Shown here: positions 5,246 through 48,529 of the stretch, one piece after another
Layout of the letters: every line of letters starts with the position of its first letter
How positions within the stretch are numbered: the stretch's first letter is position 1
Source: a virus
UHGV virus genome: UHGV-0038016
Strand: one strand, 5' to 3'
DNA: 64,000 nt
Program-made: the position numbers and the translations under genes
Notes under the pieces: generated by a model
What the model was told of the DNA's origin: nothing
Database searches by the model: none
Seen by the model: only the letters and a program-made list of their open reading frames with translations

Positions 5246-5449
5246 ATGAAAGCAAAATTTACAGAAAATGGTAAGGTCTTATATCAAAATTTATATGACC
5301 TTACTGAGGAAGCTGAAAGTAAAGGGTACAAAACTGAAGATGAAGTTATTAGCTATCTTCATGATTGTTTTATTGCTGACGAAAATCGAACGACAAATGA
5401 TTTTTCTGAATGGTTAGATTCAATTGATGAATGGACAAATCATTCATAG
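5246..5449 (+). CDS. Hypothetical acidic protein (67 aa)
   Basis: ORF beginning 4 nt after the preceding stop. Confidence 0.4.
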   Translation: MKAKFTENGKVLYQNLYDLTEEAESKGYKTEDEVISYLHDCFIADENRTTNDFSEWLDSIDEWTNHS

Positions 5450-5471
5450 TAACATAAAGGAGAAGATTTTA

Positions 5472-23716: not shown

Positions 23717-24202
23717 ATGATTTTTATAGGTTTAGACCAAGCAACAGTTGTAACAGGTTATTCTGTTTATAAGAATCAAGAATTAATTGCCTATGGAAAA
23801 TTTTCTGCTGAAGGAGATGATTTCTCAAGATATTCAAAACAGAAAGCAAATGTATTAGCATTAATTGAATATACTAAAGAAAAATATCCTAAAGAAGAAA
23901 TAAAAATAATGTTTGAAGATATTCAAATGCAGCAAAATAAAACTACTTTTAAACAATTAGCTCAACTACAAGGCGTTCTTGCTGTTGGGGTTTTAGAAGC
24001 TCATCCAGAAATTCATTTTGATTTTATCTATGCTTCTCAATGGAAAGGGTTTGCTAAGATTAAAGGTAAAAATAGAATAGAACAAAAAAGAAATGCTCAA
24101 GCTAAAGTGTTAGAAATATTTGATATTACTGCAACACAAGACGAAGCAGATGCAATTATGATTGGTTATTATGCTTCACACCAAGAAATTAATTGGAACT
24201 AA
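23717..24202 (+). CDS. RuvC-like Holliday junction resolvase
   Basis: The N-terminus MIFIGLDQATVVTGYSV is the RuvC motif with the catalytic Asp. Acidic residues QDEADAIMIGY lie near the C-terminus. Size about 161 aa. Confidence 0.65.
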   Translation: MIFIGLDQATVVTGYSVYKNQELIAYGKFSAEGDDFSRYSKQKANVLALIEYTKEKYPKEEIKIMFEDIQMQQNKTTFKQLAQLQGVLAVGVLEAHPEIHFDFIYASQWKGFAKIKGKNRIEQKRNAQAKVLEIFDITATQDEADAIMIGYYASHQEINWN

Positions 24203-24205
24203 AAA

Positions 24206-24231
24206 AGAGACCATGTTGGTCTCTTTTTTTA
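24206..24231. terminator. Bidirectional intrinsic terminator (AGAGACCA/TGGTCTCT stem flanked by an A-run and a T-run) separating the two convergent modules
   Basis: AAAAAAGAGACCAtgtTGGTCTCTTTTTTT lies between convergent stop codons at 24200-24202 and 24229-24231. Confidence 0.8.
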
Positions 24232-26997
24232 TATAGCTGGATTTGTTTGTATTGCAGAAATATTCATTGTTGGACTTCCTTCTGTGTTTAATTGTATAGA
24301 ATATCCTGTTATCATAAACATTCCTGATATATTTGAAATTTCATCTTCTGCATAAATTAATGTATTTGGTTCTAAATGATAAACTGGTAATACATCTATT
24401 GTTACTACATCTGAAGTATTAGTATGTTGATAGATTAAATTCCTAACAGAAGAAAATAAATCAACCGCTCCATCAATAGTAAATAAATTATCCATTTTAG
24501 AATCTCTAATATTAAATAATTCTTGAAAATCATCAATTCTACCACTTGACCAATCAGGAAAATCTGCGCTTCCTTTATAAACAGTTTTACTTAATACTGC
24601 TACCAAAAAGTCGTTAGTTTTATCCCAATTAAATTTAGTCCATGCAGGTTTTCCATTATTTTGTTTAGCATAGTACCATTGAGTACCTATATTTTTAACT
24701 ACAGCAAAATAATTATGATTCCCACTATCAGGACAACGACTGTTTTTATTTAACAGATAAGCAATAAAACCATATTCTGTTAAATCTGTTTCACTACCAA
24801 AAGGAGTATTTATGGTTGCAAAATCTGTTTGAGTAAACTGTCTTTTTGTAACTGGATTGGTGTATACCCCAGCAGAAATTGTAACATATCCAGGTTTATC
24901 TTGATCTTGCATATTCTTATTTACCCCAATAGTACCAGTATGTTTACCACCAGCTAGATATTCGTGAACTGTTCCATTACCTTCTGCAAACATATACCGT
25001 AATTGTTCAAACCGCCCTGGGTCTCCAACCATAGCACTATAAGGCATAACATTTTTATTTTTTGTTATTGCTGTTGGCATAAAGAATTGATCTTGTATAT
25101 CTCTAATTACTGCATAAGCTTCTCCTTGTGCTTTTAAATTATCTAATATCATATCTCCGCCTAAATCTTGTAATTCTGTTTCTGTAATAACAATTAATTC
25201 TTTAGGGTTTGTTCTAAAAATGGTAGTCGCCTGTTTATTAGAAACTCCAATAGAACGTTTACCAATTAATTCAATAGAATATTTGCCCAATTTAGATTCT
25301 GTTGGTATAATATCAAGAAAGTAAGTCCAATAAGCCGAATCACCCTTGTCGGTAAAAATAGGATTCTGTTTATCTAAAGACTCAACATCATTTTCTGTGT
25401 TTGCGCTTGCAGCCATAGGATAACCTGCCAACCATGGAGTTCCGACAGAAATAAAAGATGGATTAAAAATTCCAGTATTTGGCAACAAAGTTTTTTTATC
25501 TTCAGATGCAATCCATTTAAAAATCATTGATTCGCATTCTTTTCCCCATCTAGGAAGAACTCTTGCAGTAGAAGCGCCATAGATATTTCTAATAAAATAA
25601 TTTTTAAGCCCTAAACCAATTTGCCATGGAATTTTATCTAAAGGAACTTCAATATATTGTGTTGGTTTTCCTGCTGTGGCTTCTTTAAATTCAAAAGGAA
25701 CTGTATTAGTTTGAGGGTTATATGGCTCCCTTCTTCTTCCATCTTTTGCTAAAAAATCCATTTCTGGAGAATCCATATTAAAATCTTCTGCAACTCCAAC
25801 AAACCATTCCTTAATCTCTCTAATTGTTGGTTTATGGTCTATTGCTATTTCTAAAATTTCTCCTGTTTCTCTAGTTGCTATAAAATCATTTTTGATATTT
25901 GTATAACTAGGATTGTTATTATATCTAATAATAGTCTTTTTATCGGCAAAATTATAGGTAAAAGGAAGACCTAAATAATTAGGAATAAAATCATCCATAT
26001 CTAATTCATAAGCAAAATATCCTAAATCTGTATCTTTTTCAGGATTAAATACTTCGTTAACATAATTTTTAATAGGCTGAAACATTAAATCCCCATCACG
26101 AGTATAAAAAAATTCATGAGTATTGCTCATAGCTTCTACAATATCTTCAAAAATAGAGGTTAATGGTTCGTTTACATTCTTTTGATAAGATTCTTGAGTA
26201 CTTACCGTTCCTGCTGAAGGGTCAGGTGGACCAAATCTGCGCAATTTATAGATTCTATCTCCCTTTGAAAAATTAATTTCTGTTTCTGGAACAGTTGGGC
26301 TCCACGCTCTAGTAATAATTCTTTCCCCATCTACATCTCCAGGAGCATTAATATGAATAAATTTATCTTTTAATCCAGCCACATTTTTTACTTGCGTATA
26401 TTCATTTATATAATCTGGAACAGAATCAATAATAACCTTTGCTGGATTCTCATTCCCAAAATTCACTGCTGCACTTAAGAAAATATCTCTCCAAGAGAAG
26501 GAATAATTCTTACCATTTCTTTTTTCTACAAAACTTACTGGGGCTGGGAGGCGGCCTCCCAATGTACCATTTAGCATAGTCATTTTATCTTGCGCATTAA
26601 TTGATATAGTTGCTGTATCAACAGAATGAGAATAAGATGGTTCGGTTAAAATAAAGATCCCCATATTAAACCATATAATTTCATCTTCTTGATAACGAGA
26701 AGTTTGGTTTTCCAATCCTATATATAATTTTATTTTTTTATCTGGGGTTAGATATTTATAAACCAATTCATCGTCTCTATCTTTTACACTAAAAGTTAGA
26801 GATAAATTTCTTCTTACTCGACTTGTTCCATCAGCATTATAACTTCCACTTTTTACAATACCTTGTATTTCTTTTAAAACTTGTTCGTCCCAATTAAGTA
26901 ACTGTATCTTAGTATGCACTACTCTAATATTATGTTCAAAAAGTTCTTCTAAAAAAGAAGTAGGGTACTGCTTAACGTTAATATTTTCATTCATTAC
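24229..26997 (-). CDS. Large virion/tail-tip structural protein (922 aa), possibly Tal-like
   Basis: Start chosen at MNENIN (AAAGGAGAG RBS). Last gene of the minus-strand structural operon. The N-terminal region looks like a tail-associated/Tal-type structural domain by eye only; no catalytic motif was recognised. Confidence 0.45.
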   Translation of the reverse strand, partial: VMNENINVKQYPTSFLEELFEHNIRVVHTKIQLLNWDEQVLKEIQGIVKSGSYNADGTSRVRRNLSLTFSVKDRDDELVYKYLTPDKKIKLYIGLENQTSRYQEDEIIWFNMGIFILTEPSYSHSVDTATISINAQDKMTMLNGTLGGRLPAPVSFVEKRNGKNYSFSWRDIFLSAAVNFGNENPAKVIIDSVPDYINEYTQVKNVAGLKDKFIHINAPGDVDGERIITRAWSPTVPETEINFSKGDRIYKLRRFGPPDPSAGTVSTQESYQKNVNEPLTSIFEDIVEAMSNTHEFFYTRDGDLMFQPIKNYVNEVFNPEKDTDLGYFAYELDMDDFIPNYLGLPFTYNFADKKTIIRYNNNPSYTNIKNDFIATRETGEILEIAIDHKPTIREIKEWFVGVAEDFNMDSPEMDFLAKDGRRREPYNPQTNTVPFEFKEATAGKPTQYIEVPLDKIPWQIGLGLKNYFIRNIYGASTARVLPRWGKECESMIFKWIASEDKKTLLPNTGIFNPSFISVGTPWLAGYPMAASANTENDVESLDKQNPIFTDKGDSAYWTYFLDIIPTESKLGKYSIELIGKRSIGVSNKQATTIFRTNPKELIVITETELQDLGGDMILDNLKAQGEAYAVIRDIQDQFFMPTAITKNKNVMPYSAMVGDPGRFEQLRYMFAEGNGTVHEYLAGGKHTGTIGVNKNMQDQDKPGYVTISAGVYTNPVTKRQFTQTDFATINTPFGSETDLTEYGFIAYLLNKNSRCPDSGNHNYFAVVKNIGTQWYYAKQNNGKPAWTKFNWDKTNDFLVAVLSKTVYKGSADFPDWSSGRIDDFQELFNIRDSKMDNLFTIDGAVDLFSSVRNLIYQHTNTSDVVTIDVLPVYHLEPNTLIYAEDEISNISGMFMITGYSIQLNTEGSPTMNISAIQTNPAI

Positions 26998-27049
26998 TTT
27001 CTCTCCTTTGCTCTTGGTATGTAAAGTTTCTCTTCTATATAAAAAAATT

Positions 27050-27080
27050 AAACTGGGTACTATCACAAGTTCCCCAGTTT
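27050..27080 (-). terminator. Intrinsic terminator on the minus strand (AAACTGGG/CCCAGTTT stem, 14-nt loop, then a U-run)
   Basis: The inverted repeat is followed on the minus-strand transcript by the reverse complement of AAAAAAA (27041-27047). Confidence 0.55.
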
Positions 27081-27091
27081 AATTTTATTTA

Positions 27092-28945
27092 TTAGAATGA
27101 AGTATTTTTCATAGCTTCTTTTACAAGCTCATCCTTCATAATAGAAGATTTACGAAGTTTATATTTTTGTAATGCTTTTTCATCAAGTTTTCCAATTTCA
27201 GTAACGGTGCATTCAAAATCAGAAATTAAACCAAACGTTGGTTCATTTGGGGTAACCTTAATATTTGTCAACATTACTAACATATTCCCTTGAGCTTCTG
27301 ATTTAAGAATTTTAGGTTTTCCATCATTTAACCATGCTAGAATTTTGTTTCTCCAAATTCTTTGCATTACCATACCATCTTGTACTTCTTCTAAATCGTT
27401 CTTCATATTAAGCAACATTTCATCTCCATATTTTAGTTCTACATAACTAATAGGAATAGTTGGATCTGGAGATATTGCGACAGAATAACTATCAGAAGTA
27501 AGTAATTTGTGAACATCTTGATGATAAGTTAATGTACCAGAAAATTGATATGTTCTATAATCTAATTCAGAAGAGGTTACAAAATATGGATATTGCCCTG
27601 CAATAGTTTGAATAACATCTCTAGGTTTTACATAGGAGATTTCTCCAATTTTACCATTATAAATAAATGAAAACTGTTCATCTTTTTCTCCTAGCAACCA
27701 GAAACCATCAAAAGTAGTTACAGTATCATAGAATGAAGTAATAGCACCTTTCATTCCGTTGGCTAATATAGGTTGTAAAGCATATCGATAATAATTACCA
27801 TTTTCTATAAAATAATCATATAAGATTGCTTCTTGTACCGAACTAGATTTTAATCTAGTTACTTCTTCCCATTTCAATAATCCTTCTCCCAAAACAGAAC
27901 GCAAGATTGCAATTTCAGAAATTAATTTAGATTTATCAACCTCTCCATTCAGCATTGGAACGTCTATTTCCCCTGCATTAAGATTTAATAATAATTCTTC
28001 TTCATGCAAATTCCATCCTGTATCTTCCATACCTATTTCTGCTTTAATTCTATTTACTTGTAGTTCACTTTTTCGATCTTCTACTCCAAGAATAGAAACT
28101 CTAATAAAAGCAGCTGCTTTTGTTCGGTCTGTAAAAATAAAAGGATGTCCAAAATGTTTACTTTCTTCAGTTTTATTAAAGAATCTAGGAGAATATTTTG
28201 TTTGAATTAACTGCCTATTATTATCATAGAATTCTATACGAATTACCGCTCCACCTGAATCAGTTTTCTCACTAAGGTTAAAGCCAACTGTAATAGCATC
28301 TCCTTGCCACAGAACTATTTTTAATGGTACAAATTGAGCGATTCCTATGTTAGCATTAATTTTAGGAGCTTTATAAATTCTAAAGGCGTTTCCATTTCTT
28401 TTATTTTCTACTAATCCAACCTCACCTTTAAACTCTTTTTGTTTAAAATCATAATAATTTTTCCAGCCATTTTGATAATATTTAGGTTCTATAGTTTCTT
28501 CTCTTGTATCTACCCAAATTTTACTATGGTCGGAAGGTTCAGATTTAGAATAAATCCAATTATAAGGTTGTTCAATATCATCAGAACCCTCTACATAAGG
28601 TTTTTCAAAAACTGAGGTCCAATGAGTACTTTGAAAAGTTGACAAAGCTGTATTCTTTAATAGGTTAAAATTACCTGTTGGAGATTCTCCTCCTGCGTCA
28701 ACAAAATCTGATTGTATTTCTGTAACTCCAGAAGCCCAATCGTAACGACTACCATCCCAATCTAAATTAGGCTCCATATGACCACCTTCCATATATATAG
28801 ATTTAATTGAAATATCTCTTAAAGCTATATCAGAAAGATAACTATCTCCAGCTTGTGGAATAGCTGGAGAAGTCATTAATAAGGGATAGTATAGTTGTAA
28901 GTCGTCATTACCATATTCTTTAAATGAAGCAAATGGTACTGCCAT
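27092..28945 (-). CDS. Structural protein (617 aa), possibly Dit-like/baseplate
   Basis: Large ORF with a TAAGGAGG RBS. Function is inferred only from context. Confidence 0.45.
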   Translation of the reverse strand: MAVPFASFKEYGNDDLQLYYPLLMTSPAIPQAGDSYLSDIALRDISIKSIYMEGGHMEPNLDWDGSRYDWASGVTEIQSDFVDAGGESPTGNFNLLKNTALSTFQSTHWTSVFEKPYVEGSDDIEQPYNWIYSKSEPSDHSKIWVDTREETIEPKYYQNGWKNYYDFKQKEFKGEVGLVENKRNGNAFRIYKAPKINANIGIAQFVPLKIVLWQGDAITVGFNLSEKTDSGGAVIRIEFYDNNRQLIQTKYSPRFFNKTEESKHFGHPFIFTDRTKAAAFIRVSILGVEDRKSELQVNRIKAEIGMEDTGWNLHEEELLLNLNAGEIDVPMLNGEVDKSKLISEIAILRSVLGEGLLKWEEVTRLKSSSVQEAILYDYFIENGNYYRYALQPILANGMKGAITSFYDTVTTFDGFWLLGEKDEQFSFIYNGKIGEISYVKPRDVIQTIAGQYPYFVTSSELDYRTYQFSGTLTYHQDVHKLLTSDSYSVAISPDPTIPISYVELKYGDEMLLNMKNDLEEVQDGMVMQRIWRNKILAWLNDGKPKILKSEAQGNMLVMLTNIKVTPNEPTFGLISDFECTVTEIGKLDEKALQKYKLRKSSIMKDELVKEAMKNTSF

Positions 28946-28959
28946 TTATATCTACCTCC

Positions 28960-29553
28960 TTATTGTGGATAATCATTTAAGTCTTCATCAGGGTTAAAAG
29001 TAATTGCCGGAGCAATATAGGTATCATCTTGTGGTTGAGCCCACAAATATCCAAGAGCAGAAGGTCCTGGGCTATTTTCGCTATAAATTACTGGCGCACC
29101 CCAATTTTTATTGGCTGCTACTTTTGCTAGTTCATCTTGAAGCCATAGACTCCATTCATTGATTTGATCTACTAATTGTTGAGCAACAATTGAAATTAGT
29201 TCATAGTTGCCATCTGCAGCTTCAATTGATGCTTTTAAATAAGACTGTGTAGTTCTAATAGCATCAGCCATTAGATTAAAATCATCTTCCGTCAAAACAT
29301 AATTACGAACTCTCAACATCAACTCTTTAAGTTTTACAAAGTCTTGTTCTGACGCTGTATTATTTGATACATTCGCTAAGATAGCATAATAATCATGTAA
29401 GTCTTTTTCTAGTTGTCCCCCAGAAGGAACACTTGAATATTCAATTACTTTTAATTGATCTACAACACTAGGGAATTTAGAAGGTCCCACATTAGCTGGA
29501 GGATCAATTTCTAATCGTCTGGGTACTTGTATTTTTAAGTCTACTTTATCCAT
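28960..29553 (-). CDS. Hypothetical protein (197 aa)
   Basis: ORF with an AAAGGAG RBS. Its ATG overlaps the upstream stop (TAATG). Confidence 0.45.
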   Translation of the reverse strand: MDKVDLKIQVPRRLEIDPPANVGPSKFPSVVDQLKVIEYSSVPSGGQLEKDLHDYYAILANVSNNTASEQDFVKLKELMLRVRNYVLTEDDFNLMADAIRTTQSYLKASIEAADGNYELISIVAQQLVDQINEWSLWLQDELAKVAANKNWGAPVIYSENSPGPSALGYLWAQPQDDTYIAPAITFNPDEDLNDYPQ

Positions 29554-31751
29554 TATTCTATTTCTCCTTTACTCTTTAATTCTTCAATGTCACTGGTTAA
29601 TAAGTCTCTCGAACGTGTTGTTGCAGTAGAGATGTTTCCAACATCCGTTCCTAAGACCCCTCGTTCATCTGCTGTAATTGTATAAGGAACTTCCTTGCCA
29701 CTTAAATCAACTTTTGGTAGGAAATCTGAACCTAAACCAGTTGTTGTTAAAAACATATCAGAACTTATTCCAACGCTGTTCATGAATCCTTCAGAATAAG
29801 TTAATGTAAATCTATCTAAACTGTTTTGGCTATCATCAGCAGATAAATCACGTACTATTAATCTTATCTGTCCATCAATACAAGAAAAGTACATATAATA
29901 TTTTCTTGTCGGTTGTATTTTAACCCACTTATTTAACTTCTTATTAAAATCATTCATGTAAGCTTTATAAGTTTGTGTAGTTAATAGAGTTTTTCTTCCA
30001 AGCTCAAGAGCGTAAACTCGTTTAACAAACCTAAATTCATTAAGATACATTGGACGGACGTTTTCGCCCAATACATAATTTTCATAAACTGTATCAAGAA
30101 CAATAGTTCCATTTGTCTCTACTCTTGGTACTACTAAAATATTATGATATGAATCAAAGAAACAAACAGGTTTTAAAAATTCTGTTGGATCTTTTTCATG
30201 AGATTGTTCTGTGACGAATTCTCCATTAATTGTAACAGTTGTTTTCCATAGTTGTTGGTTTTCATCTTCCAAATAGAAGAAGGTATGCGAACTTGGTAAA
30301 TCTTCACTCGGAATAGTAACAATACCTCCCATACCTCCAATAATTCCTCCTTCTGTTGTAGGAGTTTTAGAACTATCTAGGTAAGTTAGATATATATCTC
30401 CTGATGGACTTTCAATAACAGGATTAATAATAATATCATCTTCATATGGACCTTCAGAAGCTTTATCTTTCCCAAGAGGAGCAGTATGGGCATACATTAG
30501 ATATTCTTCTTGGTAGGGATTAATTGTAGAAATCTCTGGTCCTTTTAGCCTGAAGAACCATCGGTCTTCTTTCGCTTCCCAAGTTTTTATTGGATTAATT
30601 CCAGAAACTATCATTTCCCCTGCTATAGCAGCTTGTTTATTAAAGAAGTCTATTCCTTCAAGTACAGATACTTCTCCAGTTGCATCAGCAAATTCTCTGT
30701 CGTTAAGAGAAATTTCAAAGTTTTCCTTTGGTCCCCATTGTAGAGGTGTTTTTATATTTAGTTTGATTTTAGAACGAGCATTATCATGATCGTTTTCAAC
30801 ACTAACTGAACCCCTAAATAAGCTTCCTTCAAATTGTGTTGTAACATGATAAGTAAATGTTTTTCTTAGGTCCCAGGCAGTTTGTATTGATAATTCAACT
30901 ATATACTTATTCTTATCTTCTAATTCTACTACATTTTGCCATCTAATTTCAATATTTGAAGGTTCTTGACCGATAATCCAATCACTTGAATCAATAAAGA
31001 GTTCTTTTTCATCTCCATTGGCTCTATAAATATCAATTCTATAAGCTTTAAGATAATTAGCCATTGTGTTATTTCTAATATTTTCTTGTATATTAGAACC
31101 AACAAATTCAAATATTGGTGAAAAAATATTATTCCCGTCAAATTGCAATTCATAAATTGCTTCACTTACAGGAGAAATTAAAGAAATAGTAGACCACTCA
31201 GATAATCCCTTAGAAATTAAATTTCCTCCAAAGTATGTGGTTTTATCAATATTTACATACTGTTGTACATCACTAGAGTAAGTTTGAATATTCCCTCTTC
31301 CATTTGGCTTAGTAGAAGAAAGCCAGTCTGTTGTTAACATAATTTGCATTTTATATCTAACATCTTTTTCTGCGCCAGACATAGTAAAAGCTTCTTGCTT
31401 TATATCAATAAAATATTCTCCATTAGTATTTTTTTGTACATAAGGCATTGTAGTATTATATCCAGTTGGCTGAATTATATTTTTTGAAGGATCTTTTAAA
31501 TCAATATATTCAGCAAATGGATTTCTAAAAGGAATAAAATCATCTAGGTATCCTTCTCCAACTGGTAATAGCGCACTTTTTTCTGTCTCAGCATTTCTGA
31601 TTCTAATAAATCCTCCTTTAAAATCAGAAATTTTATTACCAACTGCTGGTTCAAAAAAAAGTCTAAACGTGTCAGTTGGTTTTCCTAATTCAAAGGCAGG
31701 ATGCGTAATAGGAACTAATGGTGGGTATAAAATATTATAATAAATAGCCAT
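29553..31751 (-). CDS. Large structural protein (732 aa), unknown function
   Basis: ORF with an AAAAGGAGG RBS. Confidence 0.5.
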   Translation of the reverse strand: MAIYYNILYPPLVPITHPAFELGKPTDTFRLFFEPAVGNKISDFKGGFIRIRNAETEKSALLPVGEGYLDDFIPFRNPFAEYIDLKDPSKNIIQPTGYNTTMPYVQKNTNGEYFIDIKQEAFTMSGAEKDVRYKMQIMLTTDWLSSTKPNGRGNIQTYSSDVQQYVNIDKTTYFGGNLISKGLSEWSTISLISPVSEAIYELQFDGNNIFSPIFEFVGSNIQENIRNNTMANYLKAYRIDIYRANGDEKELFIDSSDWIIGQEPSNIEIRWQNVVELEDKNKYIVELSIQTAWDLRKTFTYHVTTQFEGSLFRGSVSVENDHDNARSKIKLNIKTPLQWGPKENFEISLNDREFADATGEVSVLEGIDFFNKQAAIAGEMIVSGINPIKTWEAKEDRWFFRLKGPEISTINPYQEEYLMYAHTAPLGKDKASEGPYEDDIIINPVIESPSGDIYLTYLDSSKTPTTEGGIIGGMGGIVTIPSEDLPSSHTFFYLEDENQQLWKTTVTINGEFVTEQSHEKDPTEFLKPVCFFDSYHNILVVPRVETNGTIVLDTVYENYVLGENVRPMYLNEFRFVKRVYALELGRKTLLTTQTYKAYMNDFNKKLNKWVKIQPTRKYYMYFSCIDGQIRLIVRDLSADDSQNSLDRFTLTYSEGFMNSVGISSDMFLTTTGLGSDFLPKVDLSGKEVPYTITADERGVLGTDVGNISTATTRSRDLLTSDIEELKSKGEIE

Positions 31752-31776
31752 TTAGTTCTTTCCTCCTTTTTCTCTT

Positions 31777-32892
31777 TTATTCTTCTTCACTAATAGCCCA
31801 ATCTAAGATATTAAATTTACCATCCATATTATTTTGAGCAACTAATGTTTTTCCAATATATGGATTTTTAATATAAACTTTTAATGTTGGCTTTGCGATA
31901 CTAATAGAATTATTAGTCTTCCCATAAGTAACTAATGCTGCTTCACCAGAGTCATTTAGCCATTCTCTAATAAAGTTAGTATCTAAACTATTTGTCCATG
32001 TAATATTTTGGAAAGTATTAGCAGTATAATCTTCTTTTTTATTTGCTTCTCGAACTGGTTGTACTACATTGCCGTTCATATAAGCTTGCGTTAATGCACT
32101 TGTTGTGCCTTCCATTGGTTGAGATAATACTTCAATAGTAAAGTTTGAAATAGTATTTTCTAAACTTTTAGAAGTAGCAAATAATTCTTGTAATTGATGA
32201 CGAACCGCAAATCGTACAAATGCTTGTGGGATATTATCATCTTCTGCAGTAATAGTTTCTTCTTGAACACCATTAACTATATTTGTAAATACATCTTCTG
32301 GTACGTCCACCAAATTTTTGCCTTCGTTAAAGACTAAAACAGTTTTTCTGGAGTTATCAAAAGCAATATGAGTTGGTGCTAATTCAACTAATACATCTGG
32401 CACTCCTGGTTGAACCTTCCATTTATCTCCCTTAACATAAGTTAATGGTTGACCTGTATTAATAGATTGTTGTGCGAATTTAAGTTTTAAATTATTTGGA
32501 TCTGTATCATCAATTTGTAAAGCATAAGATAAACCTGAAGTTGTAGAAGTTACAACTGGTGGATAGCTTAAGTTTTCAATTAATTGTGAAATATAAGGAA
32601 CTAAACGTGATAGTTCATCTGTAGTTAAAACAATATCCTCGAAATTATTTGGTACTTTATCAATTAGTTGAGTTAAGGCAACTTCTTGTGTAGCTAATGC
32701 TCGAATAGGTTCTGCATTAGTAATCAACATATCAACAATATCAATCTTACCACCAAATCTAGTTAAAATTTGTTTTTCTGAATTATCTACAAAGCGTCTA
32801 TCTGGTGTTTCTCTTACCATTTCTGAGACTGTTTCAGGAAGTATAATATTCCCTTGATGGTCACGGAAAGTGTGTTTTTTAAATCCTTCCAT
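31777..32892 (-). CDS. Structural protein (371 aa), unknown function
   Basis: Start moved to MEGFKKH (AAAGGAGGAAAAGGATAATG). The track's longer N-terminus lacks an RBS. Confidence 0.45.
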   Translation of the reverse strand: MEGFKKHTFRDHQGNIILPETVSEMVRETPDRRFVDNSEKQILTRFGGKIDIVDMLITNAEPIRALATQEVALTQLIDKVPNNFEDIVLTTDELSRLVPYISQLIENLSYPPVVTSTTSGLSYALQIDDTDPNNLKLKFAQQSINTGQPLTYVKGDKWKVQPGVPDVLVELAPTHIAFDNSRKTVLVFNEGKNLVDVPEDVFTNIVNGVQEETITAEDDNIPQAFVRFAVRHQLQELFATSKSLENTISNFTIEVLSQPMEGTTSALTQAYMNGNVVQPVREANKKEDYTANTFQNITWTNSLDTNFIREWLNDSGEAALVTYGKTNNSISIAKPTLKVYIKNPYIGKTLVAQNNMDGKFNILDWAISEEE

Positions 32893-32984
32893 TATCCTTT
32901 TCCTCCTTTTGTTTTTTGCTCTAAAAGTATTGAAAAAGAGGATAAGCACATTGTTATTGCATACCCTCTAATTCTTTTTATATA

Positions 32985-35696: not shown

Positions 35697-36026
35697 TTAT
35701 TTTTCTTGTTTAGTTTCATCTAGACCTTTTTCAAAGCCTTTTTTAGCAGCAGTATCAAATTGATTAGTTGCAATATAACCACCGATTAAACCACCAATTA
35801 TACCAACAATATAGTTAAGTCCTACAATTCCAAGAGCAGGAGCAATTGCCACTAGTACTGCTCCGATACCCCCTCCTAAAACTACTGCGATTAATTTAGT
35901 ATAATCGCTAGGAATAAAAGGTTTGATTAATTGAATAATATAAAATACGATTGGTGCCAAGATACCACCAAATGCTACCAAAGCAGCGAAAACATCTTGA
36001 ATTTGACTCATATCAATATTTGCCAT
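35697..36026 (-). CDS. Holin-like membrane protein (three predicted TM segments, charged C-terminus)
   Basis: Hydrophobic stretches FAALVAFGGILAPIVFYIIQLI, LIAVVLGGGIGAVLVAIAPALGIV and YIVGIIGGLIGGYIA, then a KKGFEKGLDETKQEK tail. The gene lies immediately upstream of the hydrolase. Confidence 0.65.
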   Translation of the reverse strand: MANIDMSQIQDVFAALVAFGGILAPIVFYIIQLIKPFIPSDYTKLIAVVLGGGIGAVLVAIAPALGIVGLNYIVGIIGGLIGGYIATNQFDTAAKKGFEKGLDETKQEK

Positions 36027-36110
36027 AATTTTATTTCCTCCTTAATTTTTGCCGAGATTAAAAGATTAGAAGAGCTAGGAAAAAACCTGCTAGCATTCCT
36101 AAACCAAATA

Positions 36111-36266
36111 ATATTACTCGGCGGTAACGTCTTTTTTTGCCATTTCATCTACAAGCTTCATAACATCGTCTCGGATCATAGCTGGAATTTGGTTTTCTTT
36201 TCCTTTCCAACCTTCTGGATCTTTGATGATAAGACTTGCGTAAAAAATTGCTAAATATGGATACAT
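36111..36266 (-). CDS. Small protein (51 aa) with a hydrophobic N-terminus, hypothetical
   Basis: MYPYLAIFYASLIIKDPEGWKGKENQIPAMIRDDVMKLVDEMAKKDVTAE with a strong AAAGGAGGTGATTATTAATG RBS. Under the ORF-track cutoff. Confidence 0.4.
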
Positions 36267-36281
36267 TAATAATCACCTCCT

Positions 36282-37016
36282 TTAAGGTTGTCCAATAATC
36301 ATATTAGATAACATATTAATAGCATCAACTAAAGCCATTTCATTTAACTCTACTTTTTGTTTAAGTTCTTCATTTTCTTTCACTAAAGCGTCAAATTCTT
36401 CTTGGCTAATTTTGCCATCTCCATTTAGATCAATAATTGGTTTTTCTGGCAATGGTTCATCAGGAATAGAATCCCACGTAATTTTAAGTAGCTCATCCTT
36501 ATCAGTTTGACTGTCTACTAATGGATACAGCTTTTCTTTTAGTTTGTTCATTTTAGCTGTTTTTACTAAACTAGCAAAAGTATAAAGCGTTAAGAAACCT
36601 ATTTCATCTAATTCCTTTAAGAGAGTTTCCCCATTAGAATTAATAAACTCCCATTTAATATGCGTAATAATTTTACGTTCGAAGAGCGACTTAACCTCTT
36701 CGAAGTATTGTTGTTTATTTTTAGAGTAGGATACATGGTAGGTTTCCTCACTATTTAGTTCGTAGTCAAAACCAGAAATTATACTTTCATAACAAGACAT
36801 CTCTAAGTCATTTTTTACGTATTCTTTCAGGTTGTTTAATTCAAGAGAATTATCTTTGATCAGTTTTCCGTCTTTGTAAGTGTAATTACCAAAAAAATCA
36901 TTTAATACAATAATGGGGTGGTCATCTGGTATTTCTACTTCTGTCAGACCTTCAGAGTAACTGCTACTCCACCCCAAAACAACATTATTTGTATCTAATT
37001 CAACGTAAATAGTCAT
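36282..37016 (-). CDS. Tail-associated protein (244 aa) with a canonical EF-hand-type Ca-binding loop and a C-terminal coiled coil
   Basis: DLNGDGKISQEE matches D-x-N-x-D-G-x-I-x-x-x-E. AAGGAGGTGG RBS. Confidence 0.55.
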   Translation of the reverse strand: MTIYVELDTNNVVLGWSSSYSEGLTEVEIPDDHPIIVLNDFFGNYTYKDGKLIKDNSLELNNLKEYVKNDLEMSCYESIISGFDYELNSEETYHVSYSKNKQQYFEEVKSLFERKIITHIKWEFINSNGETLLKELDEIGFLTLYTFASLVKTAKMNKLKEKLYPLVDSQTDKDELLKITWDSIPDEPLPEKPIIDLNGDGKISQEEFDALVKENEELKQKVELNEMALVDAINMLSNMIIGQP

Positions 37017-37028
37017 CTGACCACCTCC

Positions 37029-39410
37029 TTAAAATTCATGTACCCTTACTAGTACAGCACGATTGGCATAGTTTTCGCCCTTCCAATTGTTATCATTACC
37101 TTTTATTTGCGTATTAGTAACATAGAGATATTTATGAGCAACAACGTCACCATAGGCCCCGAATAGCAAACGTACTCCGGCAGTGCTTGAAGTAGTTACC
37201 ATATCCTTCCCAATATAGGTCTGAATCATGTCGGCCCAAAATGAAGCACCATTAATATATTTACACCACATAAGCACCCAACCATTTCTACATTCAGACA
37301 AAGGCTTAGATGGTGTTATAGTTTGATTGCCTGCCATAAACCAACCACCTGACCATAGCATTGTGGCAGGATAATACATACGACCATTATCAGTAACTTT
37401 AAATATTGGAGTACCATCATGGTTAACATAGAATCCGTTATCTCTCATGTACATACGGTCGTAATCTTGACTTTGATTAGGAGAGTTAATATCTTTATCT
37501 GATTTGATGAAGTGTAGCCCTTCTCCATCATTGTTCATTGTATCATTCGAGAAGAAAATACCATTTAAACCAGATATATCACTATTATTCATTTGAATTC
37601 CCGTTTTACCTGTACTATGGTATTTTTCAGCTTCAATTTCTATAACACCAGACAATCCTCTTTCTTCACCTGTTGTTGGAAAATCTCCAAAAGAGACAGA
37701 TTTACGGTTTGGATCGATAAACATTAATGGTTTACCTTCCGTAATATTATATGATCTAGAATATGTTCCAGTTTTATCTGTAATGAATATTGTAACTGTC
37801 CAAGACTGAGAATTATCTAATGGTAATGTTTGTGCTGTAATACTTAATACATTCGCTGCTGTAGTAAAAGGAATATCTACCCTATCTGAACCACTTATTT
37901 GGTATTGTACAGATAAAATTTTATTTTTCCCATCAACAGGAGACCAAATAGAAGTACCTGAAACTAAAGTATCTGTTTCAAAACTATTATTTCTTCTTAC
38001 ATTAAAATTAATTACAGGCATATTATATGGAAGTACCGTAACTTCATAAGAAACACTTCCCTTTAATCCTCGACTATCAATAGCAGTAACAGTTAGGTTT
38101 CCTGTTGTTCCTGTAATAACACCAAAGTCTAAAACCATATTTCCTTCTGCATAATTAACCGTTTTTTTGATCCCTGCAAACGATGCCTCAACACTAGCTG
38201 GTTTACCATAATCTCTAGTTGTTATTATTGAACTAGGAACCGTTACCCTCAAAGTAGAATTTTTGTCTAAAAGTATTTTTTTGTTTCCTGTTATAGCAAT
38301 AGATACTTGATTTGTATCTTCATGAGAAAAACCTTCAGTTATTAAGGGTGAAGCTGTTTCTGTATTAACAATCGCACTTGCATATTTTTTTATACTATTT
38401 CTATATTGGGAACCACAAAGTTTAGAAACAATTTCTACTTCATAACCATTTTTTGTTGCTCCCGTAAATCTACTCAACATATTATTTACGTCTTCTTGGG
38501 TTAGCGTCCATCCTGTAGAACTTGTCGTTAAATTAGACCATGATTTACTCCAGCCAGCACATCTAAATGTTACATCATATTTAAACTTACTATCTGATTG
38601 GAAACTATCTAAACCAATATTAATTTTTTCACCTGAAGTTAAAGAAAAATCTTTAATATTAGGAGAAGCTGGTGCTGGATGAGCAATCTGGACTGTTCGT
38701 TGTTGACTAAGTCCGGACACGCCGTTCGTCCATAGTTTAACCTTTCCCAAAATATTTCCACCATCACCAGCAAATTGTTTTATTCTTTGAGCAATAGTTG
38801 ATAGCTGTCCATCTGTAAAATTAAATTTACCACTCGTTGCGACATTGCTTACATCTGCAAGCCACGTCCAATGACTATCATCAGATAGCGTAGGGTTAGC
38901 TCTATTTTGGACCCAAAAGCTTAGTCCATGTGTAAAATTTGATTGTCTGCTAATAGAAAAAGAACATCCATTAGGGACTGTAAATGTTGGTACTGGATTC
39001 AATGAACTATGTCTAGGTATTTTTGGTAAATCTGCATTAAAATTCCCAACAGATATTGTTCCGTAATAAACTCCTGCAAATGTAACATTTACAAAATAAC
39101 TTCCAGAAACAGTAGTCGTTTTTGAGCCGTCATTATTGTGTCCTACTCGATAATCTTTAGCTAATAATAATTTATTTTGACGCGCACTTAATTGAGAAGT
39201 TGCGTTTTCAGTTTGTTTTTGTCCATTAATTGTAACTTGTGCTTGACCTACGGCAGAAGCTGAAATAGCTCCATAGGCGTCCATAGATTGTAAATATAAA
39301 AAACCGGTGACAATTGTATAGTTACCAGCAATATCTTGTCGGTTTATCGACCATCTACAATTTAAATGATGTCGAGCAAAAGCAGTATATTTCTCTCCAC
39401 TTGTTGCCAT
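37029..39410 (-). CDS. Tail fibre / receptor-binding-like protein (793 aa)
   Basis: Large Ser/Thr/Asn/Gly-rich beta-type protein adjacent to the giant fibre gene. RBS GAAAAGGAGGAAATTTAATAATG. Confidence 0.5.
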   Translation of the reverse strand: MATSGEKYTAFARHHLNCRWSINRQDIAGNYTIVTGFLYLQSMDAYGAISASAVGQAQVTINGQKQTENATSQLSARQNKLLLAKDYRVGHNNDGSKTTTVSGSYFVNVTFAGVYYGTISVGNFNADLPKIPRHSSLNPVPTFTVPNGCSFSISRQSNFTHGLSFWVQNRANPTLSDDSHWTWLADVSNVATSGKFNFTDGQLSTIAQRIKQFAGDGGNILGKVKLWTNGVSGLSQQRTVQIAHPAPASPNIKDFSLTSGEKINIGLDSFQSDSKFKYDVTFRCAGWSKSWSNLTTSSTGWTLTQEDVNNMLSRFTGATKNGYEVEIVSKLCGSQYRNSIKKYASAIVNTETASPLITEGFSHEDTNQVSIAITGNKKILLDKNSTLRVTVPSSIITTRDYGKPASVEASFAGIKKTVNYAEGNMVLDFGVITGTTGNLTVTAIDSRGLKGSVSYEVTVLPYNMPVINFNVRRNNSFETDTLVSGTSIWSPVDGKNKILSVQYQISGSDRVDIPFTTAANVLSITAQTLPLDNSQSWTVTIFITDKTGTYSRSYNITEGKPLMFIDPNRKSVSFGDFPTTGEERGLSGVIEIEAEKYHSTGKTGIQMNNSDISGLNGIFFSNDTMNNDGEGLHFIKSDKDINSPNQSQDYDRMYMRDNGFYVNHDGTPIFKVTDNGRMYYPATMLWSGGWFMAGNQTITPSKPLSECRNGWVLMWCKYINGASFWADMIQTYIGKDMVTTSSTAGVRLLFGAYGDVVAHKYLYVTNTQIKGNDNNWKGENYANRAVLVRVHEF

Positions 39411-39452
39411 TATTAAATTTCCTCCTTTTCCTCTTCTCTCTTGGGAAATAAG

Positions 39453-39488
39453 AAATGGTCACTCCCAAATAATTAGGAATGACCATTT
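39453..39488 (-). terminator. Hairpin terminator after the 2297-aa gene (AAATGGTCAcTCC / GGAaTGACCATTT)
   Basis: Stem of 9 + 3 bp with one mismatch. U-rich sequence lies on both sides. Confidence 0.5.
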
Positions 39489-39492
39489 ATTT

Positions 39493-42400
39493 TTAGTCAG
39501 TATCTTCACCATTGTATCCAACAAAGGCCCAGCCCTTAATAGTTGGAGAATCAACCGATACAATTTGTACTGGTTTCATCATAAATCTTTCTTGCGCTTC
39601 TAATTTTTTAACTTTCGTTGTATCTTTATTTAAAGTAAATACTCTTTCATAAACTTCCCCATTACGATAATAACCTGCAAATTCTCTAGGAGTCATAACA
39701 TTATATCCATCGTAATCAGAATTAAATACTTTCAAGCCACTACTATCAATTCGGACATTTGTAGAATATACTTCTTCGTGATGAGATTGCCAAGAGAGAG
39801 GATATGGACCAATGTTAATCATTAATCCTGCTGCGGATAATGTTGCATCTGCGCTTCCTTCTCCTTCTAAACCAATTCTAATAGTAACTGCACTTGTGTT
39901 AGTTACTGAAAAAGTAACAGACATTCGTTGGTATCCAATAGTATCAGCAGAGGCTTCTGAAACAGCTATTTCTTCTCCAGTTTTTGTATTTAATACTTTT
40001 ACATAATATTTACTCTTCCCTGACTGATTAATTTTATTAGCGTACCAGCTTAGAGTATATTCTGTATTTGGATTAGGTAGAAGAATATCTTGGTCTAGTT
40101 TATATCTTAAACCTTTTAATTCAAAACCAGCAATTAAACCAAGTTCTTCTAGTGATTCATCACCTAAAATTTGTCTAATTTGGGCATTGGCTGAATCATT
40201 TTTATGCCAGAAATCAAACATCCCAGAATATAAAACTACACTAGGTTTTCTAAAATCAAAATAGTCAGTAACAGTTGTAGAACTATTATACAAACATACC
40301 TTCATAAAAGCGGCTCCAGATGGTATTGTTACATTAACAGAATAATTACTCCAAATATCTTGGACTATATTATTTGTTTTTACAGTGTAAGAATCTGTTT
40401 CAAATATGGAACCAGCATTGTGCTTTTTGTCTGTAAATAGATAGATAAAACCTTGTCCATCTCCTATTGTATCCGCTTCAGAATTAGCTGATGGATCGCT
40501 TGCTGCCCCATAGAATCTAATAGAAACATAAATATGTTGAGTATCTCCAATAGTGTTAGGGATACGAGCCTGTCCAGAAATATTAATCAATTGACCTGGA
40601 GTAACAGGAATATTTTTACTATAACTATATTTGGTTCTTGAATTAGTTCCACCAATACGCATAATATTATATTCTGGAAAGTCATTTTCTGCTCCTATTA
40701 TTTGACCCATTCCTGTATCATTATACACCCAACCATTATCATTTAATCCAGTAGTTGAGATTGTTCCTTCAAATTTAGGATTTGTTAACATTTCATCGCT
40801 AGGCGCTGTATCTTCCCATTGGAAACCTGTTGAATTTCTAATTAAGTTAACCCCACCAGCTTTATCAATACCAAAATTGAATTTATTCATTTCTTGTTCA
40901 AATTCTGATTTGTTTACATATGTTGTATCAATTCCAGCAAAAGCTTCTTGCATCTGCTTATTATATTCTTCTATTTTATCTGATAATTCATGGTTGGCAC
41001 TACTTAGTTCATCGACCGCATCAGTTTTAGCATACACTTTCGACATATCTTCTGAACCAACTACTGTTTGAACAATAGAATCATCCGAAGTTTTTTGGGT
41101 AATTTGATAAATCCAGTCAATAATTGTAGAACCGTCTTCATTATTTAACCATGGAAGCATTTCTAAATCAGAAGCACTTAGAACAACCCATCCCCATTCG
41201 TAAGTTGTTTCTATTTTTTCTTGTGCAATACCTTTGGCACCGTTAACGTCTTCGCTACCATTTTCTGTAGTGATTGACTTCCAATTATAAGAACTAGGAG
41301 TGGTTGGATCTGGTGCTGTATCAGTTACACAATATCCAATATACATAGGTTTTTGACTACTATTATAAGTAACACTAAACCCTGGATCTGGTGTGACACC
41401 ATCTTCTTGATATCCAGTTGGTGTATTTGCATAAGCATAATGCGCATATTCAGTTCCAATTACACTTTCAATTGCTGATTTACCCCAACGATAAACTAAA
41501 CTTGGATTAGTTTTATCTAGAGGATCTCCACTACCACTAGAAGTATCTAACCATAATAATCCAGGATAAGGATTAAGTGGAGCAGTTGGTTGTCGTAAAA
41601 TTAACGGTTTTGTTGCATCGAAGCTTTTATTGTTTACAGTCATATAATCAAAAGCTGCCATAGAATTATATTCTACTTGAGCTTTAAAACTAATTGAATT
41701 AGCCTCTAAGAATACTACTGGTTCAACAACAATATATTTTTTATTTAAGGTAATTCCATTTCCAGCAGTAATTACTGTCCATTCCACCGAAGAATCTTTT
41801 GACATATACCATGTTACTTTATCTGGTTCTACTATATCTCCATCAGATTGTGTTTCTACATTAATTTGAATTGGAGATTGCTCAATGTTTGTTCCACCAT
41901 TAGAATAAACTTTAGCTACAAGTCCGCCACTCCCTTTGATTCTACTCCAAGTATAATCACCATAGGCGCTTGGTGCAGTTGAAGTTTGTGTAATAGCAAT
42001 ACCAATGTATTTAGTTTTGCTATTAGGTGTTGTAGTCATTGGATTACCATTGGCGTTTTCTGAATAACGAATCCATGTATAACTACTTGAACCATTAGAA
42101 CCATTCGAACCATCTTTGACAATATTAATACTCTTTTGATCTAATTGTACATTTTTAGCTCCAGCAACATACATCTTAACTCGTGCAGACAAAACGTTTA
42201 ATGAAGAAGGAGTATAGGTATAGGTTAATGCGTCTGCATCATACTTAGTAGTCCATGTAGTTCCATTAGTAGTTTCTTCTACAACAATACGAGATTTGAT
42301 GTTCTCAATAGATTTGTCCCCTGTTTGAGCCATACCAGAAATAGTAATATTTTCAGGAACTAGTTTACTTGCTCCTCTTGGTAATGACATTACTTGGCTG

Positions 42401-46386: not shown

Positions 46387-46539
46387 CTAATCACCCTCTT
46401 CTTTAATTTCCTCAAAGGATTCGATATAAGTATCCATACCATATTTAGTCCATAAATATTCGATAGGATTTCCATCTGTACTAAATTCAATTTTTGTCCG
46501 TTCATTATTTAAAATGATATAAGCAATATAGTTCGTCAT
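46387..46539 (-). CDS. Small protein (50 aa), translationally coupled between two tail genes
   Basis: Its ATG overlaps the upstream TGA (ATGA), and its TAG stop abuts the ATG of the 2297-aa gene. A GGAGGTAGAAAACAAATG RBS is present. Under the ORF-track cutoff. Confidence 0.4.
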   Translation of the reverse strand: MTNYIAYIILNNERTKIEFSTDGNPIEYLWTKYGMDTYIESFEEIKEEGD

Positions 46540-47651
46540 TTGTTTTCTACCTCCACTTTGAATGTTGTTGTATTATCTACATCAGCACTTCCAACTGACA
46601 GCGATTTTCCAGTTTTATAAGCATTGCTTGTGCCGCCGAAGTTTGATACCATTGCGTTATTTTGCCACTTAGACCATTTATAGGTATATCCTGTACCGCC
46701 CGAATCGATTTCTTCTCCATTTTGGTACAATCGTGCTTTCAAAGTAGTAGATCCTACGCCATTCTTCAAAATGTTCCCTCCGGAGGACTCAATAACTACC
46801 ATAATTGGATCGTCCATGTCCATTAAAGTTACATACTGCTTCATTTTAGTTCCAGAAGTTCCTCCAGCATTATCTGTGACAACACACAAGAATGTTTGTC
46901 CATTTGTTACTGCATCTGGGTAGACCGTTAAAACTCCTTGAGCTGTAACTGCAACATCAAATCCCGAACTTGCAACAGCCCCTGATGTTCCTGTGGTTGC
47001 TGTAATTTTTCTCCAACCAACTCCAGCGTCAGGATCTTGAGATGTTGAAACGCTTGAATCTGCTGCGAACCATTTATATTTTCGAGAGCCATTGCTTAAA
47101 TCCCCATCCTTATAAACATCAGCAGTTAACTTCAGACTAGAAGGCGTATTATTTCGGAAGTAATTTCCATTAGGCGTACTCAAAACTGCTACTACTGCAG
47201 CTTTAGCTAGTTGAATAAGATTAATGTCGATAGTCGCTTGAAAAGTAATTGGTAGCGAAGTATCTGGGTCTGTATATATTCCCTCAACCGTCCAACGTAC
47301 AGCACTATTTGTTGTTGGGACGTTTACTTTTGTTGTCAACACACTGTTTGATGTGCCGCCCTTATACTCACTATCAGTATTTGTTGTAGAAGTTATTTCA
47401 GTAGTTGTTGCCCCTACTGTCTTTTTCCATTTAACATCTGATACAGCGGAGCCAATTAAGCTTCCTGTTCCACCTGCTTTTGTTAAGTTAAGTGTTAAAA
47501 CTTGTGCAGAGGACCCAAAATTGGGTGAATATGTGTTAGTTGTATTGTTGTATGTTTGAGTTGTTGTTTGACTTGCTGAAATCCATGCATTTAATGCAGG
47601 AGCATCATACAAATCAATAATTGTAATTTGACCGCTTGAAATTGTTGCCAT
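46536..47651 (-). CDS. Tail-tip protein with Ig/BppU-like beta repeats (371 aa)
   Basis: Thr/Ser/Gly-rich. Shares the KWFAADSSV...DAGVGWRKI motif with the C-terminus of the 661-aa protein (KWFYADESV...DGGVGWSLI). Confidence 0.5.
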   Translation of the reverse strand: MATISSGQITIIDLYDAPALNAWISASQTTTQTYNNTTNTYSPNFGSSAQVLTLNLTKAGGTGSLIGSAVSDVKWKKTVGATTTEITSTTNTDSEYKGGTSNSVLTTKVNVPTTNSAVRWTVEGIYTDPDTSLPITFQATIDINLIQLAKAAVVAVLSTPNGNYFRNNTPSSLKLTADVYKDGDLSNGSRKYKWFAADSSVSTSQDPDAGVGWRKITATTGTSGAVASSGFDVAVTAQGVLTVYPDAVTNGQTFLCVVTDNAGGTSGTKMKQYVTLMDMDDPIMVVIESSGGNILKNGVGSTTLKARLYQNGEEIDSGGTGYTYKWSKWQNNAMVSNFGGTSNAYKTGKSLSVGSADVDNTTTFKVEVENK

Positions 47652-48500: not shown

Positions 48501-48529
48501 CTTGTTCCCTCCTTTATCTCTATATTTAT

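Follow-up and report, generated by a model that had tools for sequence, protein, structure and literature searches.

The stretch of DNA analysed here, referred to as the window, is 64,000 nucleotides of the UHGV virus genome UHGV-0038016, and the element in question is a block of six co-oriented minus-strand genes, encoding proteins of 71, 371, 732, 197, 617 and 921 aa, which closes the late operon and converges on the replication genes. In the order of transcription, the operon runs from the tape measure through six fibre-type genes, a holin and an 810-aa hydrolase to the block. According to the listing of open reading frames (ORFs), the six genes are located as follows:

33200-32985, minus strand: 71-aa gene
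32892-31777, minus strand: 371-aa gene
31751-29553, minus strand: 732-aa gene
29553-28960, minus strand: 197-aa gene
28945-27092, minus strand: 617-aa gene
26994-24229, minus strand: 921-aa gene, predicted baseplate hub (Tal) from its AlphaFold2 model and Foldseek

In a previous description made from the letters of the window (the sequence-only reading), these genes were said to be co-oriented, to have strong ribosome-binding sites and to follow the holin and hydrolase, not the tape measure. All of this holds: an AGGAGG-type Shine-Dalgarno sequence is found at every block gene start (ATG or GTG), and the GTG-extended readings of 390 and 945 aa have none. Five of the gene sizes given there are right and the last protein is 921 aa, not 922; the span given, which ended at 32949, leaves the 71-aa ORF outside. 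Tight coupling by a TAATG overlap, claimed for the block in general, exists at the 732/197 junction only, since the 810-aa and 71-aa genes overlap by 14 nt, the remaining gaps are 14, 25, 92 and 97 nt, and two hairpins lie inside or beside the block.

Seven Enterococcus phages of 134-142 kb (VRE9_1 to VRE9_4, EF1, EF5 and H1) match the region at 95.7-99% identity; for VRE9_4, the identity with the window is about 99%. All six block genes are labelled "hypothetical protein" in the records of these sibling phages, and each is its own PHROG. Because the genes are kept at such identity in seven independently isolated phages and each has metagenomic homologues, down to 40-45% identity, sequence conservation indicates that the block is real biology and not chance. 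The block proteins are acidic, as is usual among structural proteins. The host phage is a large Enterococcus siphovirus of about 134-142 kb, related to Geobacillus virus E3, Enterocloster phage PMBT24 and phAss-1. In the phAss-1 paper, EF1 was grouped with large phages that have tape measures of >3000 aa, including Enterocloster phage OQ326496 (PMBT24, written "PMBT10" in that paper), and this group was compared with Spbetavirus genomes. A long non-contractile tail was seen in PMBT24 by electron microscopy.

The central member of the block is the 921-aa protein. Its AlphaFold2 model, built on 44 homologues, has a mean predicted local distance difference test score (pLDDT) of 84.7 and a predicted TM-score of 0.64, and in this model the protein shows a gp27-like hub (Tal) fold. 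Searched by Foldseek against PDB, the model gave 34 matches with E <= 0.001, and almost all of the 50 matches listed are baseplate hub, Tal or VgrG chains. The hub matches cover 350-400 aligned columns with a probability of 1.00; for the best of them the target-normalised TM-score is about 0.45, with E from 1e-6 to 1e-3. The matched chains (7aef_q, 8v3w_H, 3cdd, 1wru, 7zqp_b, 9euf_E, 3gs9, 6v8i_AE, 1k28_D and 8zdo_s) come from contractile and non-contractile systems, namely the hubs of the Algoriphagus extracellular contractile injection system (eCIS) and of diffocin, MuSo2 (3CDD), Mu gp44 (1WRU), T5 pb3, the phi812 hub, Listeria gp18 (3GS9), the Douge baseplate, 80alpha Tal, T4 gp27 and VgrG. 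On the strength of the modelled fold, we identify the 921-aa protein as the baseplate hub (Tal).

Sequence comparisons point in the same direction. The gp27-like hub occupies about aa 1-390 and a DUF5048-like C-terminal domain about aa 845-916, and both ends are found in PMBT24 ORF66 (471 aa, "baseplate hub protein"), which matches aa 24-157 and aa 834-917 by tblastn and phmmer. With the same two programs, Geobacillus virus E3 gp45 (396 aa, "tail protein") matches the N-terminus alone; a 746-aa protein of phAss-1 matches both ends, and phmmer also links the 921-aa protein to the hub genes of two of the metagenomic loci described below (L008 and L011). The match to phrog_1887, "tail protein", is at 2.4e-9. 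When the family was compared with Pfam member by member, sub-threshold DUF5048 matches were found in 13 of 27 members; PMBT24 ORF66 clears the DUF5048 cut-off (95 bits vs 32.3), and E3 gp45 stays below the cut-offs of both DUF5047 and DUF5048. Despite the hub fold in the model, the 921-aa family gave no match to SPP1 Tal by hhalign. About 440 extra residues (aa ~390-845) are absent from the 396-471-aa relatives; in the model, this insert has an alpha/beta region followed by a beta-sandwich.

The hub gene is immediately preceded by the 617-aa gene, whose product is supported, by homology and position, as the protein in the position of the distal tail protein (Dit). It is made up of an N-terminal segment (aa 1-83), an insertion (~aa 90-310) resembling a carbohydrate-binding module (CBM) and a conserved core (~aa 320-610). 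The core matches phrog_27355 at 1.4e-15, and this is the family of E3 gp44 (9e-131) and PMBT24 ORF65 (3e-48); the 617-aa protein itself matches PMBT24 ORF65 at 5e-8 by BLASTP, and its family matches E3 gp44 with an E of 0.0055 by hhalign. In E3 the order is tape measure, gp44, gp45. Since gp44 is the sole gene between the tape measure and the hub there, it is the distal tail protein of that phage by elimination.

The AlphaFold2 model of the 617-aa protein has a mean pLDDT of 67, with values >90 at aa 90-310. For this insertion, the best Foldseek matches are CBM4, CBM11 and CBM16 modules, alginate- and porphyran-binding CBMs and Fbs1, so that the model shows a CBM-like insertion; it is missing from orthologues of 381-389 aa. 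In BFVD, the model matches phage minor tail proteins and uncharacterised siphovirus proteins of 235-283 aa, with target-normalised TM-scores of 0.53-0.62. The Dit-like family and SPP1 Dit did not match by hhalign, and the positive control, the hub against SPP1 Tal, was negative too, so this result is uninformative either way.

In order to compare the gene order, viral contigs were scanned for relatives of the hub. Such relatives are encoded by 360 contigs; 79 loci were fetched (cited by L numbers), 49 of them with intact genes. A Dit-like gene lies immediately upstream of the hub gene in every intact locus (49 of 49). A homologue of the tape measure of the window is present in 20 of the 49, at 1-4 ORFs (0.4-7.8 kb) before the Dit-like gene, and the large ORF usual between these two probably represents the C-terminal portion of a split tape measure, following the annotation of E3. 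In 18 of the 49, as in the window, there is a convergent RuvC gene no more than two ORFs beyond the hub gene. The minimal order is that of L011: tape measure, 122 aa, 623 aa, an 866-aa hub and the convergent RuvC gene. The synteny comparison proposed with the sequence-only reading is thereby answered with adjacent Dit-like and hub genes near the tape measure of relatives. As judged from these comparisons, the 617-aa protein belongs to the family whose genes, in relatives, come right after the tape measure and right before the hub.

In the window, the distance to the tape measure is much greater, with the following features concerned:

58626-50605, minus strand: tape measure (2673 aa; Pfam PhageMin_Tail 1.7e-20), labelled as such in the VRE9_4 annotation
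35697-50515, minus strand: intervening segment with fibre-type genes of 661, 282, 371, 2297, 793 and 244 aa, a 50-aa ORF and the holin
36026-35697, minus strand: holin (109 aa)
35619-33187, minus strand: 810-aa peptidoglycan hydrolase (Pfam Glucosaminidase 6.7e-34, NlpC/P60 1.6e-14, Amidase_2 2.5e-5)

The tape measure matches that of L011 at 3e-152. Between its stop (50605) and the start of the 617-aa gene (28945) there are 21.6 kb and 13 genes, which are the fibre genes, the holin, the hydrolase and four block genes. Thus the Dit-Tal pair does not adjoin the tape measure in the window; such contiguity is a typical, but not strictly defining, feature of the family. The arrangement is best explained if the tail-tip genes have stayed where they were ancestrally, at the 3' end of the late operon, and fibre genes, lysis genes and a Dit-derived duplication (the 732-aa and 197-aa genes) lie between them and the tape measure. 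The module is conserved, and the genes that separate it from the tape measure are mosaic fibre and lysis genes.

From the above, we read the block as the distal tail tip (baseplate core) of a large Enterococcus siphovirus, that is, a displaced but ordinary Dit-Tal module, with a probability of roughly 80%. A Dit/Tal-like set displaced from the tape measure was among the suggestions of the sequence-only reading, and it is borne out by the hub fold of the 921-aa protein, by the homologue of the 617-aa protein at the Dit position and by the pair lying beside the tape measure in relatives. The evidence supports a rearranged but ordinary baseplate module whose members are sequence orphans of known structural classes, which is the case that the sequence-only reading had set as its refutation.

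Several observations weigh against this reading. Structure prediction, recommended earlier as a check, gave a hub fold for the 921-aa protein, but for the 617-aa protein it resolved the CBM insertion and left the core (~aa 320-610) at a pLDDT of 40-79. No Dit structure is among the listed fold matches of the 617-aa model in PDB and BFVD, where CBM matches dominated, and the Dit-like family has no Pfam (e.g. Sipho_tail), NCBIfam or PDB relative, whether searched as a single sequence or as a profile. The six block proteins have zero Pfam, NCBIfam or PADLOC family matches, and sequence searches of PDB found zero relatives, even with profiles (used for the 921-aa, 617-aa, 732-aa and Dit-core families; single sequences were used for the 371-aa and 197-aa proteins). 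In PHROGs, there are only singletons and the weak links to phrog_1887 and phrog_27355. A gap of 21.6 kb to the tape measure, containing two terminator-like hairpins, is atypical for a set of genes that initiates assembly; the 810-aa gene lies directly after the holin and could simply encode an endolysin; and the searchable literature yielded no virion proteomics or electron microscopy of these phages.

The siphophage tail tip is the initiator of tail assembly and the gate for DNA exit. By analogy with the established biology of SPP1, TP901-1, p2, 80alpha and T5, from which we infer the mechanism, the C-terminal end of the tape measure would join a trimer of the hub and a ring formed by the 617-aa protein in the initiation complex that nucleates polymerisation of the tail tube. 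When the phage infects, the CBM insertion and the fibres, which have genes of their own, would bind cell-wall polysaccharide, after which the hub would open and the tape measure and DNA would exit. The 732-aa, 197-aa and 371-aa proteins are probably peripheral tip subunits, and the 810-aa hydrolase, together with the 71-aa partner coupled to it, may serve as a wall-degrading enzyme associated with the virion.

The 732-aa protein is rare: a profile search found only 28 relatives among 1.84 billion representative proteins, and tblastn found only the seven sibling phages. Its position in the tail tip is suggested by fusion proteins of relatives (P0146, P0149, P0152, P0158 and P0163), in which a 732-type N-terminal part is joined to a 617-type core in the C-terminal part. 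For example, the 623-aa fusion of L011 matches aa 6-303 of the 732-aa protein and aa 333-607 of the 617-aa protein. Alignments show that about the N-terminal 300 aa of the 732-aa protein (about a third) correspond to the part fused in relatives, where the 732-like domain occupies the site of the CBM in the 617-aa protein. An N-terminal motif, [LF][YF]PP..x..PAF, is common to the 732-aa protein, the fusions and a 1885-aa protein of phAss-1, and it is degenerate in the 617-aa protein. By hhalign, the 732-aa family matches the 752-aa protein of L008 with a probability of 84% (E 7.6e-6); the comparisons of the 732-aa family with the 617-aa family and with PMBT24 ORF64 were negative. Because the fusions join 732-type and 617-type parts, an ancestral long Dit-like gene may be read as having been duplicated, followed by domain replacement, and the 732-aa protein is implied to act beside the 617-aa protein in the tail tip; it is probably a Dit-derived paralogue or a peripheral tail-tip subunit.

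Homologues of the 197-aa protein occur in L005, L008, L015 and L016, loci with a separate 732-like gene, and nowhere without such a gene; they always lie between the 732-like and 617-like genes. This protein is acidic, with a helical character read from its sequence, and has zero PDB, Pfam or NCBIfam matches. The distant locus L008 keeps the four-gene core, with proteins of 752, 251, 635 and 798 aa. In the 371-aa protein, the N-terminal ~130 aa are conserved and the C-terminus varies between lineages; the orthologue in L005 has only 156 aa, matching aa 4-131. Beyond the seven siblings, tblastn found no homologues of it in isolated phages, and there was no meaningful PDB match. Since a conserved N-terminus with a variable remainder is typical of peripheral or receptor-binding subunits, we infer that the 371-aa protein is a candidate for such a subunit. 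The 71-aa protein is basic, its gene, which overlaps the 3' end of the 810-aa gene, is conserved in L005, and it has a weak, sub-threshold likeness to the small beta-sandwich domain TIGR04183 (E 0.0016).

Whether the 810-aa hydrolase belongs to the module is nearly an even question. It has three catalytic domains of peptidoglycan hydrolases, with the Amidase_2 match just below the Pfam cut-off. It may be a virion-associated hydrolase travelling with the tail-tip genes, and a plain endolysin is about equally likely because the gene directly follows the holin here. If it is an endolysin only, with no structural link to the tail tip, the module consists of the 371-aa to 921-aa genes; this is a serious alternative, to which we give slightly less than even odds. 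The glucosaminidase domain is closest to streptococcal phage endolysins, in keeping with that alternative, and hairpins part the 810/71 pair from the 371-aa to 921-aa genes. The NlpC/P60 region, on the other hand, matches PHROG tail-protein families (e.g. "tail protein with lysin activity"); an additional 668-aa endolysin gene, overlapping the holin gene, lies in L005 between the holin and an 813-aa orthologue, which stands behind a hairpin; in L008 a Peptidase_M23 gene occupies the same slot, immediately before the 752-aa gene; and VRE9_4 has another annotated endolysin. With the C-terminal half of the 810-aa protein, tblastn found the seven sibling phages only.

The second annotated endolysin of VRE9_4 (CDS0099, 94884-96110, outside the window) has 408 aa, belongs to phrog_2338 and is located among early or metabolic genes. 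A small "transglycosylase" is encoded on the plus strand in the replication arm of the window (1229-1813). The record of EF5 (MF001361) starts and stops inside the 810-aa hydrolase gene, so that its numbering reflects where a permuted or circular assembly was arbitrarily cut. The 810-aa protein covers only positions 640-1431 of the 1434-position profile of phrog_3513, and the cut in the EF5 record may explain this partial match.

Three hairpins are found around these genes:

35684-35659, minus strand: terminator-like hairpin T1 with a U-run, between the holin and 810-aa genes (dG -14.7, z -3.55)
32974-32932, minus strand: terminator-like hairpin T2 with a U-run, between the 71-aa and 371-aa genes (dG -16.7, z -3.76)
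24202-24228: bidirectional terminator where the hub gene and the RuvC-like gene converge (dG -15.9, z -6.3)

T1 and T2 bracket the 810/71 gene pair. L005, whose hub is only 49% identical to that of the window, has hairpins at the positions equivalent to all three; its T1 and T2 equivalents (2712-2746 and 5433-5471 of that locus) are unrelated in sequence to the hairpins of the window, the latter being a 13-bp stem followed by U8, and the former directly abuts a ribosome-binding site, leaving no room for a promoter. Because the hairpins are kept in position with unrelated sequences, and because of the lack of promoter room in L005, the pattern suggests regulated read-through into the tail-tip genes. 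The intergenic motif TTAGAGCA(A/G)AAAA after T2 was considered as a recurrent promoter and rejected, as it is not enriched in the window.

A bolder version of the tail-tip reading, which we consider unlikely, is that the tail-initiation genes are uncoupled from the tape measure, with the tip genes behind the two hairpins that are conserved in position, with the triple-domain hydrolase and its 71-aa partner, bracketed by these hairpins, as a free-standing virion enzyme docking on the hub and with the 732-aa and 197-aa proteins, from a Dit duplication, as a second baseplate tier that carries the many separate fibres. If true, the baseplate and its expression logic would be unusual for a siphovirus, and terminator read-through or antitermination would set the dosage of the tip proteins.

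Even less probable is an accessory role for the block, as a second adhesion or baseplate-like apparatus beside a canonical Dit/Tal next to the tape measure, as the sequence-only reading had also suggested. Six fibre-type genes do follow the tape measure, the N-terminal ~190 aa of the 661-aa protein are without assignment, and the block includes a CBM as well as one protein whose C-terminus varies. However, the 661-, 282-, 371- and 2297-aa proteins of the fibre segment match only tail-fibre families and each other, and hhalign, though insensitive here, matched neither the profile of the Dit-like family to the 661-aa protein nor that of the hub family to the 793-aa protein. The late region and the 120 kb of VRE9_4 annotation examined yielded no further candidate for a hub or Dit, no second hub is annotated in those parts of VRE9_4, and in relatives with the canonical order it is the homologues of the 617-aa and 921-aa proteins themselves that adjoin the tape measure.

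The least probable alternative, and one we regard as very improbable, is a non-structural late system (ejected effectors, anti-defence or superinfection exclusion) with one hub/VgrG-like member only: the want of curated family matches, the occurrence of gp27/VgrG-like folds in secretion and injection systems and the place of the block behind lysis genes and terminator-like hairpins would fit it, but none of the six proteins matches PADLOC models at E <= 0.01, leaving the earlier idea of an unrelated late system without a defence family, in relatives the hub homologues form part of tail modules, just behind the tape measure, and siphoviruses (PMBT24 being non-contractile by electron microscopy) need a hub, for which the 921-aa protein is the sole candidate found. 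A YonO-like or split multisubunit RNA polymerase, considered for these large proteins after the Spbetavirus comparison, was dropped given the hub fold and the tail synteny.

Taken as a displaced Dit-Tal module, the block can be compared with known systems. The homologous pairs gp44-gp45 of E3 and ORF65-ORF66 of PMBT24 are its closest relatives in isolated phages outside this Enterococcus group, and both phages resemble the present one as large siphoviruses whose tape measures are very long and whose replication module is of the DNA polymerase III alpha kind. The pair directly follows the tape measure in E3, follows it after a few genes in PMBT24 and is far off in the window. Moreover, at 282/309 aa and 396/471 aa, the E3 and PMBT24 proteins are far shorter, without the CBM insertion and the ~440-aa hub insertion, and these phages do not have the 732-, 197-, 371- and 71-aa genes.

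The solved siphophage tips of SPP1 (gp19.1/gp21), 80alpha (gp58/gp59; 6V8I), T5 (pb9/pb3; 7ZQP) and Douge (8ZDO) have the same hub fold and the same Dit-then-Tal order; compared with SPP1 Dit/Tal, there is no sequence similarity detectable by hhalign, and the genes of the window are not beside the tape measure. The best structural matches are the contractile hubs (Mu gp44, 1WRU; MuSo2, 3CDD; T4 gp27, 1K28; VgrG, eCIS, diffocin and monocin), whereas no sheath is annotated in the structural module of VRE9_4 and no gp5-like or PAAR spike gene was recognised.

"Evolved" Dits with inserted carbohydrate-binding modules exist in Lactobacillus phages J-1 and PL-1 and in lactococcal phages. In the 617-aa protein, a CBM-like beta-sandwich is likewise inserted in a Dit-position protein, with putative carbohydrate binding; the insertion here comes after the first ~85 residues, where relatives hold a 732-like domain. 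The CBM-bearing tip protein is a candidate adhesin for cell-wall polysaccharide.

With the tail-tip reading, functions are assigned to five or six "hypothetical" genes of therapeutic-candidate phages against vancomycin-resistant Enterococcus, and a conserved tail-tip core can be told apart from mosaic fibre genes that probably set the host range. The parts are ordinary and the gene order is the unusual feature: the locus is a clean counter-example to the rule that tape measure, Dit and Tal are contiguous, and annotation pipelines based on synteny would miss this hub.

The intervening fibre segment differs from the block in several respects. Its fibre-type genes match PHROG tail or tail-fibre families, and the 50-aa ORF is annotated in VRE9_4 only. 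The fibre proteins share repeats among themselves only and have no domain in common with the block proteins, consistent with the earlier remark that no motif links the two. GC content is 0.335-0.379 in the fibre/lysis interval, vs about 0.30-0.33 in the flanks. In its sequence features, the segment at 34-48 kb looks like a mosaic host-range cassette.

The 661-, 282- and 371-aa genes directly after the tape measure are paralogues (phrog_3267; 46536-50515, minus strand). The 2297-aa protein (39493-46386, minus strand) shares repeated domains with these paralogues and has a C1q-like domain (Pfam C1q 5.4e-7, aa 426-495). Over its full length, the 793-aa protein (37029-39410, minus strand) shares 42-51% identity with proteins of unrelated Enterococcus myoviruses (EFGrNG, KEN11, vB_EfaH_149 and GVEsP-1), with homologues also in large Bacillus phages of about 147-164 kb; it varies among the siblings, keeping >95% identity in one of seven, while the block is nearly invariant. 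The 244-aa "tail fiber" protein (36282-37016, minus strand; phrog_1348) has a short calcium-binding loop of EF-hand-like type at aa 195-213, and its Pfam EF-hand matches are just below threshold.

On the other side of the convergence, the plus-strand replication module (270-24202) encodes ribonucleotide reductase, DnaB, RecJ, Dda, thymidine kinase, a 1284-aa DNA polymerase III alpha, dUTPase and the RuvC-like resolvase, and the GC skew flips its sign at ~24 kb. In VRE9_4, one orientation is kept throughout the structural module, which starts with the first gene, continues with portal, head and tail genes and ends at the tape measure.

In about one third of the related viral contigs, the tail-tip genes are split into many short ORFs under the standard code. 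The loci concerned are as follows:

L025, L029-L033, L036, L041, L044, L047, L049, L050, L056, L060, L062, L063, L066, L069
L071, L072, L075-L078, L080-L082, L084, L086, L087, L089; L009; L004 (phAss-1)

These broken ORFs fit stop-codon recoding of TAG to Gln (code 15), which has been published for phAss-1. Under code 15, the Dit-like ORF of phAss-1 has 1885 aa and its hub ORF has 746 aa.

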